Shown piece by piece: positions 13,318-50,899 of a stretch of 64,000 nucleotides of DNA (positions within the stretch are counted from its first letter, which is position 1; each line of letters opens with the position of its first letter). The translations under genes were made by a program, and so were the position numbers. The stretch spans positions 737,934-801,933 of the forward strand of contig CP060219.1 in NCBI GenBank assembly GCA_023898365.1. Reading direction: 5' to 3'. The DNA is from Candidatus Woesearchaeota archaeon (GTDB taxonomy: Archaea; Nanobdellota; Nanobdellia; Woesearchaeales; GCA-023898365). The notes beneath the pieces are model-generated. The model searched no databases. It was not told the origin of the DNA and saw only the letters and a program-made list of their open reading frames with translations.

Positions 13318-13464
13318 AGCCCCATAGTGTAGCGGCCAATCATAGCGGACTCTGGCAACTGGTTACGCCCGTTGATGACAAGGAGCGACATTCCGCTTCG
13401 CTCCAGTCCCTCGGTTTTTCGTTGGAGACATCCGTTGACCCCGGTTCGAATCCGGGTGGGGCTA
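13318..13464 (+). tRNA. tRNA-Gln (anticodon CUG) with ~74-nt intron at canonical 37/38 position (intron 13356-13429)
   Basis: Acceptor AGCCCCA/TGGGGCT, discriminator A; D-loop GUAGCGGCCAAUC; anticodon stem GCGGA/TCCGT with loop CUCUGG|intron|A; T-arm CCCGG-TTCGAAT-CCGGG; intron ends CAAC...GTTG can pair; no encoded CCA. Confidence 0.6.
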
Positions 13465-14032: not shown

Positions 14033-14226
14033 TTGTTTTGATAGTGTGGTTGTGGTGCGTATTTATCCGATTAAATGTTTTAGTTGGTTTTTATTAGTGT
14101 GTTTCTAATGATGTCCTCGGAGAACAATGGTTAAAATATAGGTGTTCTGTCGCCACAATGTATTTAAAGAATGGCGAAAGTAGCACTACTTGGAACGCTA
14201 CATGTGTTCTTTTTTTCATTAAATAT

Positions 14227-14258
14227 CCACATATAGTGTTTTAATTCACTATATGTGG
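14227..14258. promoter_or_regulatory. Perfect 12-bp inverted repeat (CCACATATAGTG-N8-CACTATATGTGG) flanking the TATA-like spacer TTTTAATT upstream of nrdR
   Basis: Arms 14227-14238 and 14247-14258 are exact reverse complements; the spacer sits ~25 bp upstream of nrdR ATG (14269), so the IR brackets the putative TATA box. Confidence 0.55.
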
Positions 14259-14268
14259 GGGTGTGTGT

Positions 14269-14721
14269 ATGAGGTGTCCGTTTTGCGAAAGCGATGATAT
14301 TAAGGTTCTGGAGACGCGTGAGAGCGAAGATAATAAAACGCGAAGACGCAGAGAATGTTTGCGCTGCGCAAAACGATTTACCACCGAAGAACAAGTTATC
14401 AATGCGACCATGTTTGTGCAAAAAAAAGATGGTCGCCGAGAAGAATTTTCTCGCGAAAAACTTCTCAAAGGGGTTCTGATTGCTACAGGAAAACGCCCCA
14501 TTCCTCATGAAAAAATCATTCATCTTATTGAAGACACCGAAGCTCGTCTTCGCGAACTTAAAATTTCTGAAGTACCGAGTAAGCGTATTGGTCAAGAAGT
14601 GATTAAACGTCTCAAAAAACTTGACAAAATTGCGTATATTCGTTTTGCATCCGTCTATAAAGAATTAGACGTTGATGATCTTGAGAAAGAATTGGATAAA
14701 CTACGAGGAAAAGAACAATGA
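14269..14721 (+). CDS. nrdR: Transcriptional repressor NrdR (zinc ribbon + ATP-cone)
   Basis: MRCPFCESDDIKVLETRESEDNKTRRRRECLRCAKRFTTEE + ATP-cone (VQKKDGRREEFSREKLLKGV...); ATG at 14269 (track start 14263 is GTG); stop overlaps nrdJ start (ATGA). Confidence 0.9.
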   Translation: MRCPFCESDDIKVLETRESEDNKTRRRRECLRCAKRFTTEEQVINATMFVQKKDGRREEFSREKLLKGVLIATGKRPIPHEKIIHLIEDTEARLRELKISEVPSKRIGQEVIKRLKKLDKIAYIRFASVYKELDVDDLEKELDKLRGKEQ

Positions 14722-17700
14722 GCGGCATGACAGTTAAACGCATGTTTACCGAGAGCGGGAAAGACCCGCTTGGCACACTAACATTTGTAAAGGCAACAAG
14801 CGCCATTCGTGACCAGACAGGCAAAGAAATCTTCAAGAAAGAAAATGTCGAAGTACCTGACACGTGGTCGCAAGTCGCCATTGATATTCTCGCACAAAAG
14901 TATTTTCGCAAACAAGGCGTTCCCCAACGAGACGAACAGGGAAAGCCCCTGCTCAAAGATGGCAAGCCCATTCTTGGCAGTGAATCCAGCATGAAACAAG
15001 TTGCGCATCGTATGGCTTATACGTGGCGATATTGGGGGGAAAAACATGGATACTTTGCCTCTCCCGAAGATGCGCAAACTTTTTATGATGAAATGCTCTA
15101 TGTGCTTTCAAACCAAATTGCCGTTCCTAATTCTCCGCAATGGTTTAATACAGGATTAAATGCAGTTTATGGTATAACTCGTCCACCGCAAGGACATTAC
15201 TATGTTGAACCAGAATCAGGCGAAGTAAAACTTTCGGAAGATGCGTACACGCATCCACAACCTCATGCATGTTTTATTCAATCAGTAAAGGACGATTTAG
15301 TCAATGAAGGAGGAATTTTTGATCTCTTAACGCGAGAAGCACGTGTCTTCAAATATGGTAGTGGTTCCGGAACAAACTTTTCTTCTCTTCGTGGAGAAAC
15401 AGAACCGCTTTCTGGCGGAGGAAAATCAAGCGGCTTAATGTCCTTTTTGAAAGTCTTTGACGCAAGTGCTGGTGCCATCAAAAGCGGAGGCACAACACGG
15501 CGCGCTGCAAAAATGGTCACGCTTGATATTGATCATCCAGAAATTGAAAACTTTATCGAATGGAAAGCGCGAGAAGAAAAGAAGGTTGCCATGCTCGTTG
15601 CAGGAAGTCACGCGGTCAAGAACCTACTTGATGATGTCATGCGAATTGCTTACGAAACAAAATCAACCTCACTCAAAGAAAACGAACGTTTGAAACGAGC
15701 AGTCTTACAAGCGCTTAAAGCAAACGTTTCCCCAAACTATGTGCAGCGCGCACTCTATCTTGTCGAACAAGGCTATAAGTCGATGGACTTGTTTTATCTC
15801 ACCTCAGAATTTGAAAGCGAAGCCTATCAGACGGTTTCAGGTCAGAATTCAAACAATTCTGTCATGGTCACGAATGATTTTCTGAAGGCAGTTGAACAGG
15901 ACGAATCTTGGAAACTTATTCGAAGAACTGATGGCTCGGTGTGCAAAGTTATTCCTGCAAGAGACTTGTGGCAAAAAATCGCACTTGCTGCTTGGCACTC
16001 AGCTGATCCAGGCATCCAATTTCGTGACACCCTTAACGAATGGCATACTTGTCCAAATGATGGACCGATCAATGGATCAAATCCTTGCAGCGAGTATGTA
16101 TTCTTAGATGACACTGCGTGCAATTTGGCATCAATAAATTTGATGAAATTTTACGACGGCAAACAATTCAATGTTGATGCATTTCGTCACACCGTCAGAC
16201 TCATGACTGTTGTGCTCGAAATATCTGTGCTGATGGCACAATTTGCAAGTAAGGAACTCGCAAGGAAGAGTTTTGATTTTCGCACGCTCGGACTTGGCTT
16301 TGCAAACCTTGGCACTCTCCTGATGGTTCAAGGAATTCCGTATGATTCCACAAAAGGCCGATCATTTGCAGGAGCAATAGCGGCAATTATGACGGGAACA
16401 GCGTACGCGACAAGCGCAGCCCTAGCAGCACATCTCGGGCCCTTCCCTCGCTATTCGCAAAACAAGGATTCTATGCTTCGTGTTATTCGCAACCACCGAC
16501 GTGCAGCATACGATGATCCTGATGAATCCTATGAAGAGCTTACTATTACTCCCCAAGGTTTGCACCATGAAGAACTTGATAAGGCTCTTTCTGTTGCGGC
16601 AAAAAAATCTTGGGATGAAGCGCTCCAACTTGGAGAAAAATATGGTTATCGAAATGCACAGACCACGCTTATTGCACCAACGGGCACTATTGGTCTTGTG
16701 ATGGATTGTGACACGACAGGTGTTGAGCCAGACTTTGCCTTGGTGAAATTTAAGAAGCTTGCTGGCGGCGGCTATTTCAAAATTATTAATCAGAGCGTTC
16801 CTCGAGCACTTCAACACCTTGGCTATTCGTCTGAACAAATTCAAGACATTGAAAAGTATGCAACTGGTCATGGGACGATGAAGGGTTGTCCGCATATTAA
16901 TGAAACCACGTTAAGTGAGAAGGGCGTTCCAAAACCGGTTATCAAAAATATTGAAGCACAACTGAAAAACACGTTCGATATAAATTTTGTTTTTAACAAA
17001 TTCACCCTTGGTGAAGAGGTGTGTATTGATCTTGGTTTTACTAAAGATCAACTTGCTGACCCTTCATTAAAGATGCTTGAAGCGCTTGGCTTTTCTCGAA
17101 AAGAAGTAGCGCAAGCAAATGAATACATTTGTGGCTCGATGACCATCGAAGGGGCGCCTCATCTCAAGGAAGAACATTACGCTGTTTTTGACACGGCAAA
17201 TAAATGCGGCAAGAAAGGAACGCGCTTTATCAGTTATCTTGGTCATATCAAGATGATGGGTGCGGTGCAACCATTTTTGAGCGGCTCAATTAGCAAGACC
17301 ATCAACATGGAAAAAGAAGCTTCTATTTCTGATGTAAAAGAAGCGTACTTGACCAGTTGGAAACAAATGATTAAGGCAATTGCGTTGTATCGCGATGGTT
17401 CAAAATTAAGTCAACCACTGAATACGTCAAGTGAAGATGATGAAGAATTACTCTATCTTTTGGATGCTGCAAAGCAAATGCCCGACATTCCCGAACCCGA
17501 AGAAAAAATGGTATTTGCCTCAAAGCAGAAAATGCCAAAGCGACGAGGTGGTTTTGTTCAGGAAGCGGTTGTTGGTGGTCAGAAAATATTTTTGCGAACA
17601 GGAGAATATCCTGATGGTCGCTTGGGAGAAATTTTCATTGACACCTATAAAGAAGGCGCATCTTACGGCGCGCTCCTTAATTGCTTTGCGATAGCAATTT

Positions 17701-18101
17701 CGAAAGCATTGCAACATGGCGTTCCGTTAGAAGAATTTGTTGATGCCTTTACGTTTACTCGCTTTGAACCTGCAGGTGCGGTGCTTGGCCATGACGCGAT
17801 TAAACAGGCCACTTCGATTCTCGACTATGTCTTTCGTGTGCTTGGTTATGAGTATTTAGGACGCAAAGACTTCGTTCATGTGAAGTCAATGGAAACTGCT
17901 GATAAGAAGGAAAAACTTGCCGAGGAAAAACGTGAACTTCCTTCTGAAAAACAGATTCGCATTACTGACACAAAGGTTTTTGAAGCAAGAGCTAAAGGGT
18001 ATACGGGAGAACAATGCACGCAGTGCGGTAGTATGCGCGTCAAACAAAACGGCTCGTGTAGTTTATGTGAAGATTGCGGTACGACAACAGGTTGCAGTTA
18101 A
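14718..18101 (+). CDS. nrdJ: Class II adenosylcobalamin-dependent ribonucleotide reductase, long (~1100 aa) NrdJ type
   Basis: 1127 aa; N-term ...VEVPDTWSQVAIDILAQKYFRK..., C-terminal Cys-rich tail CTQCGSMRVKQNGSCSLCEDCG; no HN[CST] intein signature seen. Confidence 0.9.
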   Translation: MSGMTVKRMFTESGKDPLGTLTFVKATSAIRDQTGKEIFKKENVEVPDTWSQVAIDILAQKYFRKQGVPQRDEQGKPLLKDGKPILGSESSMKQVAHRMAYTWRYWGEKHGYFASPEDAQTFYDEMLYVLSNQIAVPNSPQWFNTGLNAVYGITRPPQGHYYVEPESGEVKLSEDAYTHPQPHACFIQSVKDDLVNEGGIFDLLTREARVFKYGSGSGTNFSSLRGETEPLSGGGKSSGLMSFLKVFDASAGAIKSGGTTRRAAKMVTLDIDHPEIENFIEWKAREEKKVAMLVAGSHAVKNLLDDVMRIAYETKSTSLKENERLKRAVLQALKANVSPNYVQRALYLVEQGYKSMDLFYLTSEFESEAYQTVSGQNSNNSVMVTNDFLKAVEQDESWKLIRRTDGSVCKVIPARDLWQKIALAAWHSADPGIQFRDTLNEWHTCPNDGPINGSNPCSEYVFLDDTACNLASINLMKFYDGKQFNVDAFRHTVRLMTVVLEISVLMAQFASKELARKSFDFRTLGLGFANLGTLLMVQGIPYDSTKGRSFAGAIAAIMTGTAYATSAALAAHLGPFPRYSQNKDSMLRVIRNHRRAAYDDPDESYEELTITPQGLHHEELDKALSVAAKKSWDEALQLGEKYGYRNAQTTLIAPTGTIGLVMDCDTTGVEPDFALVKFKKLAGGGYFKIINQSVPRALQHLGYSSEQIQDIEKYATGHGTMKGCPHINETTLSEKGVPKPVIKNIEAQLKNTFDINFVFNKFTLGEEVCIDLGFTKDQLADPSLKMLEALGFSRKEVAQANEYICGSMTIEGAPHLKEEHYAVFDTANKCGKKGTRFISYLGHIKMMGAVQPFLSGSISKTINMEKEASISDVKEAYLTSWKQMIKAIALYRDGSKLSQPLNTSSEDDEELLYLLDAAKQMPDIPEPEEKMVFASKQKMPKRRGGFVQEAVVGGQKIFLRTGEYPDGRLGEIFIDTYKEGASYGALLNCFAIAISKALQHGVPLEEFVDAFTFTRFEPAGAVLGHDAIKQATSILDYVFRVLGYEYLGRKDFVHVKSMETADKKEKLAEEKRELPSEKQIRITDTKVFEARAKGYTGEQCTQCGSMRVKQNGSCSLCEDCGTTTGCS

Positions 18102-18105
18102 ACCC

Positions 18106-18609
18106 ATGAGAATCACAACAAAGACCGGAGATAAAGGAGTAACGTCCACTGTTGGTGGCGAGCGCATTGAAAAAAGCCATCTCTATATCGAAGTTGCAGG
18201 TGTTATTGACGAAGTGGTAACGGTAATAGGGTTTGCACGATCGCTGCAACGGGACGAGGCAGTCAAAGATCGTTTGGAAAACATTCAGCGCGTTTGTTTT
18301 TCTTTGCTTCCTGCTCTTGATCAAGACCACGCTGCTACTTTTCCTTCGAAGGCGCTTGAAGAACTTGAACAAGAAATGGAACTTCTTGAGAAAAGGCGAT
18401 TGGTAAACGATTGGTTGATAACGGGCGCTACGCCCGACGCTGCAGCATTGGGCCTCGCACGCACAGCAACTCGTCGCCTCGAACGAGAACTCTCGCGGTT
18501 CGACAAGCACGTCTATGCGGTTGATGCGACCGTTAAAGCCTTCGTGAATCGCCTCTCCGACTACTTTTGGCTTTTAGAATCCCATCACTTTCCTTCGCAA
18601 CAAAAATGA
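18106..18609 (+). CDS. pduO: ATP:cob(I)alamin adenosyltransferase, PduO type
   Basis: MRITTKTGDKGVTSTVGGERIEKSHLYIEVAGVIDE... canonical PduO-type N-terminus; ATG at 18106, 5 nt after nrdJ stop. Confidence 0.85.
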   Translation: MRITTKTGDKGVTSTVGGERIEKSHLYIEVAGVIDEVVTVIGFARSLQRDEAVKDRLENIQRVCFSLLPALDQDHAATFPSKALEELEQEMELLEKRRLVNDWLITGATPDAAALGLARTATRRLERELSRFDKHVYAVDATVKAFVNRLSDYFWLLESHHFPSQQK

Positions 18610-22862: not shown

Positions 22863-23043
22863 GGGGTTATCTTTGATTTCTTTCTTTAAAACTCTTATCG
22901 TTCTTTTCGGAAGTTTCCGGGTTGAAGGGGTTTTTGGCTTTATCGCATCCGCTCTTTATAAATTAACTATTATATAGTGGTGAAAATGGAAAACTATATA
23001 AATAAGAGGTGTGTAAGAACAAATACGAAACCCACAAGGTGAT

Positions 23044-49367: not shown

Positions 49368-49379
49368 CACTATATAGTG
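49368..49379. promoter_or_regulatory. Perfect palindrome CACTATATAGTG between a TATA-like element (aaattatttaaac) and the ATG at 49382
   Basis: Same CAC-(A/T)5-GTG motif as the two arms of the nrdR upstream inverted repeat. Confidence 0.4.
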
Positions 49380-49381
49380 GT

Positions 49382-50899
49382 ATGAACTGGGGGATGCGAA
49401 AAGTAGCGCCGTTGGTGGCAGCCATTCCTTTAGCGTTAGCAGTGCCACAAGCAGATGCAGCAAATATTCATGTTGTCGACGGCACCACCATGCAACCTGT
49501 CTCAAATTTTCCTCTTGCTGTGACGTACGATGGGCAAACTGAAACACAGTATTCTGATCTTGAAGGAATTATTACCGTAGATCCGACAACTGCGGTTGCA
49601 GATCCCCAAACACCTTCGCGTAGCACACATCTTGATTTTTTTCGCACCATGCATGACTATGGCGTTCCTAACGCTAGGGCTGAGGTGTACAATATTCAAG
49701 GTCGGCGTGAAGGATCAATTTCTGCAATGAACGAACTTACTGATTTCGCACTTGCGCCGGGAACTTATTTTTTGCGTGATCAAAAAACGGGTGCGTTAGA
49801 AAAAATAACCTTGCTTGAACGAGGCGCTATGCCTGCTCTTCATTCTTGGCATCACTTACCCTCTCCCTATCATGCCGGCCAGCGATTGCAAACGGCAAGT
49901 TCTCGCGATGGAGAAAGTTTTGAAGTTGCCATGGCCATACCTGATAATGAAGAACATGCAGTAAATGTAAATGGCGCAGATTATCTTTCAGATGTTGGCG
50001 CACTCTGGCACATTCCAGGTGGCTATACTGAAGCGAACCGTAGTGAACTGTTAGCAACAAGTATGGATGATGATTACTTGCACGGTCTTATCGGTATTGA
50101 TCGAGATGGAACGATCACCCAATCAATAAATGCCTCGCTTGAACCAGACGAAGATTATTTCTTATCCGTCATTCCTTATGATCGAGTGACGTTGCCAAAT
50201 GGTGGCGAGAGCAGCAAACGAAGTTTTTTAGAATCAGTGTACAGCGCATATCCTGGAGGAGATTTATTTCGACACCTTAACGATTCTTTAAATGTCTTCG
50301 TATACATGGGCGTCTCGCAACCAATTGAATTTTTTAACAATGACACGCTCACCACTGCAATAGATAAATTTATTGATCTTCATGCAGTGGATGGATATAA
50401 TTTTTTTGACCATATTGAGGGAACGCCAACGTACGCAGAACCTATGTCTGATGACACTCCCCGTCATGTGTTCTTTGGCTATGATCGTGTTGGCAATGAT
50501 TTTTGGTCACTCTTAGAACCCTACGATCCTACGATCATTTGGGCAACGCACAGTTATGAACATCTTGCAGGTCGCAATGTGAACGCAATCACCAGTGATG
50601 ATTTTGTGCGGGGACTTAACAAAGCATTTTTGCTCACCTCATTACTCGATGTGCAAGAAGGGCCTGGTTATGATCCAGAAGCAGCACGTCCCTTCATCTA
50701 TGCATTGCACGCCTTAGGTTTTCACGTCAAACCATACGGATCAGCAAATTTGTTTGGACTAGCTGGCAGTCCTGAAGAGCAAACACCCGAAGTCTTAGAA
50801 AGCAAACTTCTAAACAGATCATACGACTCGCAAGCAACAAGTGCGCAACAATACAAAGGACTTGTGAATGATCAACCCGCACCCTACACTGGCGAGTGA
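49382..50899 (+). CDS. Secreted hypothetical protein (paralog-like to 52270-54210 in N-terminal module)
   Basis: Signal MNWGMRKVAPLVAAIPLALAVPQADAA; N-terminal ~90-aa module ...THLDF...Y.I.GRR...ELT.F...GTYF resembles that of the 52270 protein. Confidence 0.55.
   Translation: MNWGMRKVAPLVAAIPLALAVPQADAANIHVVDGTTMQPVSNFPLAVTYDGQTETQYSDLEGIITVDPTTAVADPQTPSRSTHLDFFRTMHDYGVPNARAEVYNIQGRREGSISAMNELTDFALAPGTYFLRDQKTGALEKITLLERGAMPALHSWHHLPSPYHAGQRLQTASSRDGESFEVAMAIPDNEEHAVNVNGADYLSDVGALWHIPGGYTEANRSELLATSMDDDYLHGLIGIDRDGTITQSINASLEPDEDYFLSVIPYDRVTLPNGGESSKRSFLESVYSAYPGGDLFRHLNDSLNVFVYMGVSQPIEFFNNDTLTTAIDKFIDLHAVDGYNFFDHIEGTPTYAEPMSDDTPRHVFFGYDRVGNDFWSLLEPYDPTIIWATHSYEHLAGRNVNAITSDDFVRGLNKAFLLTSLLDVQEGPGYDPEAARPFIYALHALGFHVKPYGSANLFGLAGSPEEQTPEVLESKLLNRSYDSQATSAQQYKGLVNDQPAPYTGE

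Follow-up and report, generated by a model that had tools for sequence, protein, structure and literature searches.

The perfect inverted repeat that precedes nrdR in the window, by which we mean the whole 64-kb stretch of archaeal DNA analysed here, is probably an autoregulatory NrdR operator of the nrdR-nrdJ-pduO operon and, judging from its sequence, a rare variant in which the two NrdR boxes lie two helical turns apart. Most bacteria have NrdR as the master regulator of their dNTP synthesis. Binding by NrdR had been put forward in the earlier note as a fallback suggestion, and it has become the best explanation of the repeat: both halves fit the NrdR box, and the cognate nrdR gene lies directly downstream. 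The gene identities given in that note are borne out by the protein families, namely NrdR (Zn-ribbon plus ATP-cone), a class II ribonucleotide reductase (RNR) and a PduO-type adenosyltransferase:

14269..14721, forward strand: nrdR, 150 aa, the presumed cognate repressor (Pfam Zn_ribbon_NrdR and ATP-cone)
14718..18101, forward strand: nrdJ, class II B12-dependent RNR of 1127 aa, its start overlapping the nrdR stop
18106..18609, forward strand: PduO-type cob(I)alamin adenosyltransferase (family match), which makes the NrdJ cofactor

The NrdR protein matches the solved NrdR structures with E values of about 1e-30 (E. coli) and 1.7e-24 (S. coelicolor). Its open reading frame is intact, as are its Zn-ribbon (four Cys, R17, RRRR and R37) and its ATP-cone. 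The closest homologues, from DPANN archaea and Patescibacteria, are 50-59% identical, and no relative with an NrdR more than 60% identical was found that could serve to footprint the window's own site. Residue 15 is E, not D; the NrdRs of many Patescibacteria and of some DPANN archaea with canonical boxes likewise have E at this position. Within residues 41-43 an E stands directly after RFTT in place of the near-universal Y/F/H, a substitution that is unique among 119 homologues; two residues beyond that E there is Q for R/K, and one residue is deleted near the C-terminal VYxxF motif. The changes after RFTT lie at the start of the interdomain linker, a segment that has been speculated in the literature to set spacer tolerance. 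In the same part of the window a tRNA-Gln(CTG) with a 74-nt intron in its anticodon loop (13318-13464, forward strand) lies directly upstream of a RibD_C-type gene; it was missed by default ARAGORN and by Rfam and was found by ARAGORN with intron search. This intron-containing tRNA and the CDC48-type and HerA-type genes are in keeping with an archaeon, and the identical NrdR protein is recorded at NCBI from a Candidatus Woesearchaeota MAG.

The repeat itself is real, and the coordinates first reported for it are right. A repeat finder returned CCACATATAGTG (14227-14238), an 8-nt spacer TTTTAATT (14239-14246) and CACTATATGTGG (14247-14258) as a 12-nt inverted repeat of 100% complementarity. Ten nucleotides separate its end from the nrdR ATG at 14269, GGGTGTGTGT standing 3' of CACTATATGTGG and the ATG following. 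It is the sole perfect 12-bp inverted repeat with a spacer of 3-40 nt in the window. In random sequence of the same first-order composition 0.44 such repeats are expected per 64 kb, and 27% of random sequences have at least one, so that the repeat is unremarkable at the scale of the whole window; the chance of such a repeat within this 236-bp intergenic region is about 0.0008. The region is identical (100%) in two further assemblies from separate sequencing runs, which excludes an assembly artefact and at the same time makes a strain-level comparison uninformative.

The earlier note held that the motif does not fit the NrdR-box consensus. That misfit arose because the wrong C was taken as the conserved one; the critical C4 is the first C of CCAC, and in the correct 16-bp register both halves have everything that experiment requires of a box:

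14224..14239, no strand assigned: NrdR box 1, TATCCACATATAGTGT, at -45 to -30 from the ATG, with all six critical positions
14240..14245, no strand assigned: linker TTTAAT, 6 bp (canonical 15-16 bp)
14246..14261, no strand assigned: NrdR box 2, TCACTATATGTGGGGG, at -23 to -8, an inverted copy of box 1 with the six critical positions
14227..14258, no strand assigned: the perfect 12-bp inverted repeat, its arms being box positions 4-15 and 2-13

According to a 2026 mutational study, C4 and G13, 8 bp apart, are critical in a functional NrdR box and binding is lost when the distance is 7 bp; A6 and T11 are also necessary, the bases from C4 to G13 must be at least 63% AT in between, positions 3, 5, 7, 10 and 14 are tolerant of change, and two boxes are required for function (PMC13584703). 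Both 16-mers have C4, A6, A8, T9, T11 and G13. C4 and G13 correspond to C14227 and G14236 in box 1 and to C14249 and G14258 in box 2, 8 bp apart in each, and six of the eight bases between them (75%) are A or T in either box. The deviations that the boxes do have (C5 or G12 singly, and the edge positions 3 and 14) are tolerated in vitro (PMC13584703). Over positions 4-15, box 1 matches box 1 of S. coelicolor nrdRJ (TCCCCACATCTAGTGG) at 11 of 12 bases, the sole mismatch falling at the non-conserved position 10, and box 2 resembles the validated box 1 of S. coelicolor nrdAB (ACACAACATCTGGGGG). The nearly palindromic look of each arm, which had been remarked on earlier, results from the CC/GG with which the two boxes, themselves partially palindromic, end on their outer sides.

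The six-position core occurs 10 times in the window against about 19 expected at random, and the pair upstream of nrdR contains the only two cores that lie within 45 bp of each other; the probability of at least two cores in this intergenic region is about 0.002. Scored against a position weight matrix derived from archaeal boxes with at least 13 of 16 consensus matches, the window's boxes reach only 5.9 bits, no better than several coding-region sites, the matrix's own boxes scoring 13.5-24. The low score follows from the weak outer halves of both boxes, and we judge that the matrix is fitted too closely to strong boxes, since those validated by experiment are far more degenerate. By eye, half-box-like sequences CCACAATGTATTTAAA and GCACTACTTGGAACGC can also be seen in the same intergenic region, at 14153-14168 and 14183-14198 with a 30-bp offset; their left halves are good and their right halves degenerate, and they may be remnants of an older canonical pair. 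The 16-mer at 14181 (TAGCACTACTTGGAAC), two bases off the register of the second half-box, has 2 core mismatches.

What sets the site apart is its spacing, which had gone unnoticed in the earlier note. With a linker of 6 bp the centres of the boxes are separated by 22 bp, which at 10.5 bp per turn makes 2.1 helical turns, compared with the usual 31-32 bp. Linkers of 15-16 bp (three turns) are the rule, with 25-26 bp (four turns) in streptococci (PMC12051234), and older sources give 31-32 bp or an "integral number of turns" (including PMC4009431); an integral number of helical turns is the spacing rule for the three- and four-turn classes (PMC12051234; PMC4009431). The 22 bp seen here come close to such a number and lie inside the tolerance of 1-2 bp in either direction that three-turn sites show. 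In vitro, over a range of 12-27 bp, four NrdRs bind spacers of 14-17 and 24-27 bp and others up to about 300-fold worse, spacers of 12-13 bp being bound 10-100 times worse and 12 bp being the shortest in the series (PMC12051234). The genome survey in the same paper, which covered bacteria and allowed any gap, distinguished classes of 14-17 and 24-27 bp and placed the rest under "other". The window's linker falls outside both ranges, and the site is therefore classed as a variant, not as a canonical NrdR operator. No partner or third box was found at canonical offsets around the pair. We found no description of a two-turn NrdR operator in the literature searched; Rodionov and Gelfand (2005) might mention one.

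Upstream regions of nrdR were compared in 80 genomic loci, and about 90 relatives were considered overall (including L001-L086). Textbook 16-bp NrdR boxes are very often found upstream of nrdR in the 80 loci. In the archaeal ones there are typically two boxes whose starts are 32 bp apart, and they lie close behind a TTTAAATA-type TATA box or around it. About 20 DPANN archaeal nrdR genes have NrdR-box pairs at the same place as the window's pair, with linkers of 15-16 bp, and in three loci (L081-L083) a TTTTTAAATA TATA element lies inside the 16-bp linker. All 12 pairs with perfect critical positions (8 archaeal, 4 bacterial) have a 15- or 16-bp linker. P0089, P0040 and P0008, the relatives that come nearest to the window's NrdR in their Zn-ribbon (E15-T16-R17 type), have canonical pairs as well. 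A 6-bp linker was not found upstream of nrdR in any of the approximately 90 relatives, where the spacing is 15-16 bp. From the relatives' canonical boxes before nrdR it follows that autoregulation through NrdR boxes is ancestral in this neighbourhood. NrdR or NrdR boxes are given as absent from archaea in a 2014 review and a 2025 preprint; NrdR is encoded in about 22% of archaeal genomes (PMC13584703), and a literature search returned no experimental work on archaeal NrdR. One ETR-type archaeal relative (L057) is without canonical boxes and has, at -22 to -1 of nrdR, a single 22-bp imperfect palindrome (GAGTTCACTATTTAGTAAACTC) between TATA box and ATG.

The two-turn arrangement does recur beside nrd genes elsewhere. 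When metagenomes were scanned for pairs of perfect cores that have GTG/CAC on their inner sides and lie 6 bp apart as boxes, 117 stretches matched. Among the 96 ORFs that flank 66 distinct sites (first 80 loci), the commonest Pfam families are the ATP-cone (6), RNR barrel (3) and RNR all-alpha (3), followed by NRDD, PFL-like and NrdR Zn-ribbon (2 each), and the frequency of nrd families beside these sites is far above what would be expected of random sites. The pair lies upstream of nrd genes on about ten independent contigs:

L089/L170, L127, L155: 6-bp-linker pair upstream of nrdD
L091/L173, L102, L157, L203: 6-bp-linker pair upstream of the RNR large subunit
L116, L137: 6-bp-linker pair upstream of nrdR
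L159: 6-bp-linker pair upstream of glyA-nrdR

Six of these (L089, L091, L102, L127, L155 and L203) are three- or four-box arrays that also contain an offset of 31-33 or 43 bp. The two-turn pair stands alone, with no canonically spaced third box, in L116, L137, L159 and L157 (in L157 up to the contig end). The site in L116, CCGCCACATGTAGTGG-aaccaa-CCACTACATGTGGTGG, has almost the architecture seen in the window. The nrdR genes of L116 and L137 are 82% identical and their intergenic DNA is no longer alignable; the perfect cores and the 6-bp linker are nevertheless kept in both, a conservation that amounts to a small phylogenetic footprint in these sequences. The NrdRs at two-turn sites are of different types (actinobacterial in L116 and L137, E. 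coli-type in L159, DPANN in the window), so that no special protein feature is implied, and a search for one among interdomain linker length, residue 15 and the C-terminus found none in common; the window's Y-to-E change is not shared.

In viral contigs the same pattern gave at least 120 matches with a 16-bp linker and at least 120 with a 26-bp linker, 7 with a 5-bp linker and 1 with a 6-bp linker, the out-of-phase controls of 11 and 21 bp giving 11 and 4. The viral scan thus recovers the known three- and four-turn classes, and two-turn pairs are rare and at background in phage DNA. The case for a functional class consequently rests on the stand-alone nrd promoters and on the L116/L137 comparison rather than on overall enrichment. 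None of the viral loci has nrd genes, which makes them uninformative as a control for nrd adjacency.

Several further observations came from these scans. Among the matches listed (L205-L324), phage sites with the 16-bp linker adjoin portal (10 ORFs) and large and small terminase genes, not RNR genes; the 26-bp-linker loci in phages are L342-L420. Phages may tie their packaging or late operon to NrdR, the dNTP sensor of the host. An NrdR-box-like pair with a 6-bp linker, CGCTATATATTGTGT-ttctgg-ACACAATATATAGCG, stands in three metagenome loci (L092, L131, L162) at the start of a gene for a pyruvate formate-lyase-like glycyl-radical enzyme, not an RNR. Tandem arrays of NrdR-box-like palindromes with a 22-bp period (ACACAAAATTTTGTGT and others) were seen on short metagenome contigs (L099, L104, L112, L142, L149, L160, L168, L191; L164; L165). 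A conserved element of about 44 nt, GGAATGCCATATATTGTGCCGTTAGGCACTACATATTGGTAGAA, is present on many unrelated contigs (L148, L185, L193, L199, L167, L194, L196), with a variant in L114, L144 and L178, and may be part of a conserved RNA or gene.

Within the window, leaderless-type genes have a TATA 8-mer that begins -29 to -31 from the ATG, and leadered genes have TATA at -45 to -57 together with a GGTG(A) Shine-Dalgarno sequence at about -6 to -15. The nrdR gene fits both patterns equally well:

14239..14246, forward strand: TATA candidate A, TTTTAATT, beginning at -30 (leaderless reading)
14219..14226, forward strand: TATA candidate B, TTAAATAT, beginning at -50 (leadered reading), with a predicted transcription start near 14249, inside box 2
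14257..14263, forward strand: Shine-Dalgarno-like GGGGGTG, at -12 to -6

According to the earlier note, no TATA-like element other than the spacer lies at the right distance, and nrdR is leaderless. The first claim does not hold and the second loses its certainty, since TTAAATAT and GGGGGTG fit the leadered pattern just as well and TTAAATAT matches the cTTAAATAc of relatives' nrdR promoters. The spacer fits the promoter pattern, and close relatives have a TATA-like element between their boxes, so that its assignment as the TATA box survives as one of two readings. The boxes extend from -45 to -8, the pair ending 7 nt short of the nrdR start codon. Whichever TATA assignment is taken, they overlap the core promoter, covering both TATA candidates or the predicted start site. 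The proposal that the repeat is an operator overlapping the nrdR core promoter is very probable.

A different account of the repeat had been built on its arms, which were read as a lineage-specific CAC-W5-GTG palindrome that recurs in the window. Only the two arms match this motif across the window, and 12 of 100 shuffles likewise reach two matches; sites matching CAC[AT]{5}GTG, which the earlier note had proposed for a genome-wide search and which was run here on the 64-kb window, are not more frequent upstream of other genes than chance. Searches of the window with the arm (up to 2 mismatches) and with the 16-bp textbook NrdR-box consensus (up to 3 mismatches) each returned the arms and chance-level matches only. 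The site at 49368, CACTATATAGTG, which was described as the same palindrome, is CAC-W6-GTG and so differs in spacing; it is the single copy of that form in the window, and 34 of 100 shuffles yield at least one. Read as an NrdR box, it carries a C at the critical position 6; it has no partner box, and the gene at 49382 belongs to no recognisable family. The related site at 22974 is half a motif that lacks the critical C4 in NrdR-box register and is not above chance. A window-wide motif is unsupported by the evidence. The core of the L057 palindrome resembles the 49368 site (CAC-W6-GTR).

These results bear on whether the operator belongs to some other dimeric regulator of this lineage, for example a wHTH protein of this genome, that reads the 12-bp arms and to which the NrdR-box likeness is coincidental. 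Perfect 12-bp symmetry with an 8-nt spacer is what one would look for at the site of a classical HTH repressor that binds as a dimer or tetramer; none of the NrdR complexes characterised to date has this spacing, and the archaeal-box matrix score is low. The arm, however, has no second copy in 64 kb, the six NrdR-critical positions are present in both halves with the correct internal spacing, and the same architecture stands before nrd genes in unrelated bacteria that would not share such a regulator; we regard this explanation as very improbable. About as improbable in our estimation is a role as an RNA hairpin (12-bp stem, 8-nt loop) that would form in the 5' leader or in transcripts reading through from upstream and would affect the translation, processing or stability of the RNA. 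The segment 14215-14275 does fold at -21.5 kcal/mol (z = -4.8), none of 200 shuffles being as stable, and the stem abuts the GGGGGTG run. With either TATA candidate, however, transcription would begin within the repeat or beyond it and the complete hairpin would not be transcribed, and the T7 run upstream at 14211-14217 could terminate read-through; moreover, relatives conserve boxes, not hairpins, and no Rfam family matches the intergenic region.

The most serious rival is a decayed operator: a degenerate or non-functional remnant, either a canonical operator that has lost about 10 bp of its linker or a palindrome made by template switching, to which NrdR does not bind productively. The uniform 15-16 bp linkers of relatives and the background frequency of two-turn pairs in phage DNA speak for it, and the divergence of this NrdR (at most 59% identity to any homologue, and the unique Y-to-E change after RFTT) could reflect relaxed constraint. 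We consider it unlikely all the same, as perfect 12-bp symmetry with all twelve critical bases kept is unlike decay, the NrdR reading frame is intact with its DNA-contact arginines and ATP-cone kept, and stand-alone two-turn pairs at nrdR are conserved between diverged species.

From the features of the site, its position and its recurrence elsewhere we infer NrdR binding, its nucleotide dependence and repression, as follows. Two 16-bp NrdR boxes in mirror orientation with a 6-bp linker would form the operator of nrdR-nrdJ-pduO. When dATP is plentiful, NrdR loaded with dATP/ATP would occupy both boxes through pairs of Zn-ribbon domains and kink the DNA, by analogy with bacterial NrdR, which bends it by about 90 degrees at each box (PMC9110341). 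Since the boxes span -45 to -8, bound NrdR would sandwich the TATA box if TTTTAATT is used and would cover the region from the TATA edge through the transcription start if TTAAATAT is used; in either case the assembly of TBP, TFB and RNA polymerase would be blocked. When dNTPs fall, NrdR carrying only ATP would pass into non-binding oligomers, and the RNR, the cofactor-activating enzyme and NrdR would be expressed. The analysis suggests that in this organism NrdR, the B12-dependent RNR and the enzyme that makes adenosylcobalamin may be co-repressed by dATP. That NrdR forms a productive repression complex on boxes two turns apart, as a third spacing class in which an archaeal TATA box would be clamped between kinked boxes, is a tentative proposal, somewhat less probable than its contrary. 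If true, it would require a tetramer geometry or an oligomeric state unlike those of the solved complexes, and it would reveal how a nucleotide sensor of bacterial type is connected to the basal transcription machinery of an archaeon.

The site shares much with the canonical bacterial operators of NrdR, such as those of S. coelicolor nrdRJ and of E. coli nrdAB, nrdHIEF and nrdDG: two boxes with the same determinants and an AT-rich centre, overlap with the core promoter of an RNR/nrdR operon and the presence of a cognate Zn-ribbon/ATP-cone protein; the nrdR-nrdJ gene order is shared with S. coelicolor. The canonical operator has a 15-16 bp linker and an offset of 31-32 bp (three turns) and is bound by a dATP/ATP-loaded tetramer, whereas the window's site has 6 bp and 22 bp (about two turns). 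It further differs in that its two boxes are exact inverted copies of each other, that NrdR has E15 where the bacterial model proteins have D15, and that its archaeal host has a TATA/TFB-type promoter rather than the bacterial sigma-70 -35/-10 elements. Archaeal MDR1, Phr, TrmB-type and Lrs14-type repressors occlude TATA/BRE or the start site, and the mechanism proposed here is of the same kind, TBP/TFB or RNA polymerase being kept off a compact promoter by steric hindrance. Those proteins, however, are of HTH or Lrp type, whereas the repressor presumed here is a nucleotide sensor of bacterial type with a Zn-ribbon and an ATP-cone.

Neighbouring boxes at a 22-bp offset are found in nrd promoters with multi-box arrays (three boxes in Thermotoga nrdJ, two pairs in L. 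monocytogenes nrdAB, and the metagenome arrays); these arrays also have a canonically spaced partner, whereas the window, L116, L137 and L159 have the two-turn pair only. If two-turn operators are real, regular-expression and matrix searches limited to linkers of 14-17 and 24-27 bp miss true sites, and natural stand-alone operators of this kind would extend the helix-phase rule and put a hard limit on the compression of the NrdR tetramer. A parallel in this respect is provided by the long-spacer sites of Streptococcus pneumoniae (25-26 bp, four turns; PMC12051234), from which it is apparent that NrdR spacing classes differ by whole turns and that the tetramer must flex. The pneumococcal sites add one turn and their binding has been measured; the window's site, known here from its sequence, removes one turn, and it would extend current NrdR work in a directly testable way without amounting to a system of a new kind.
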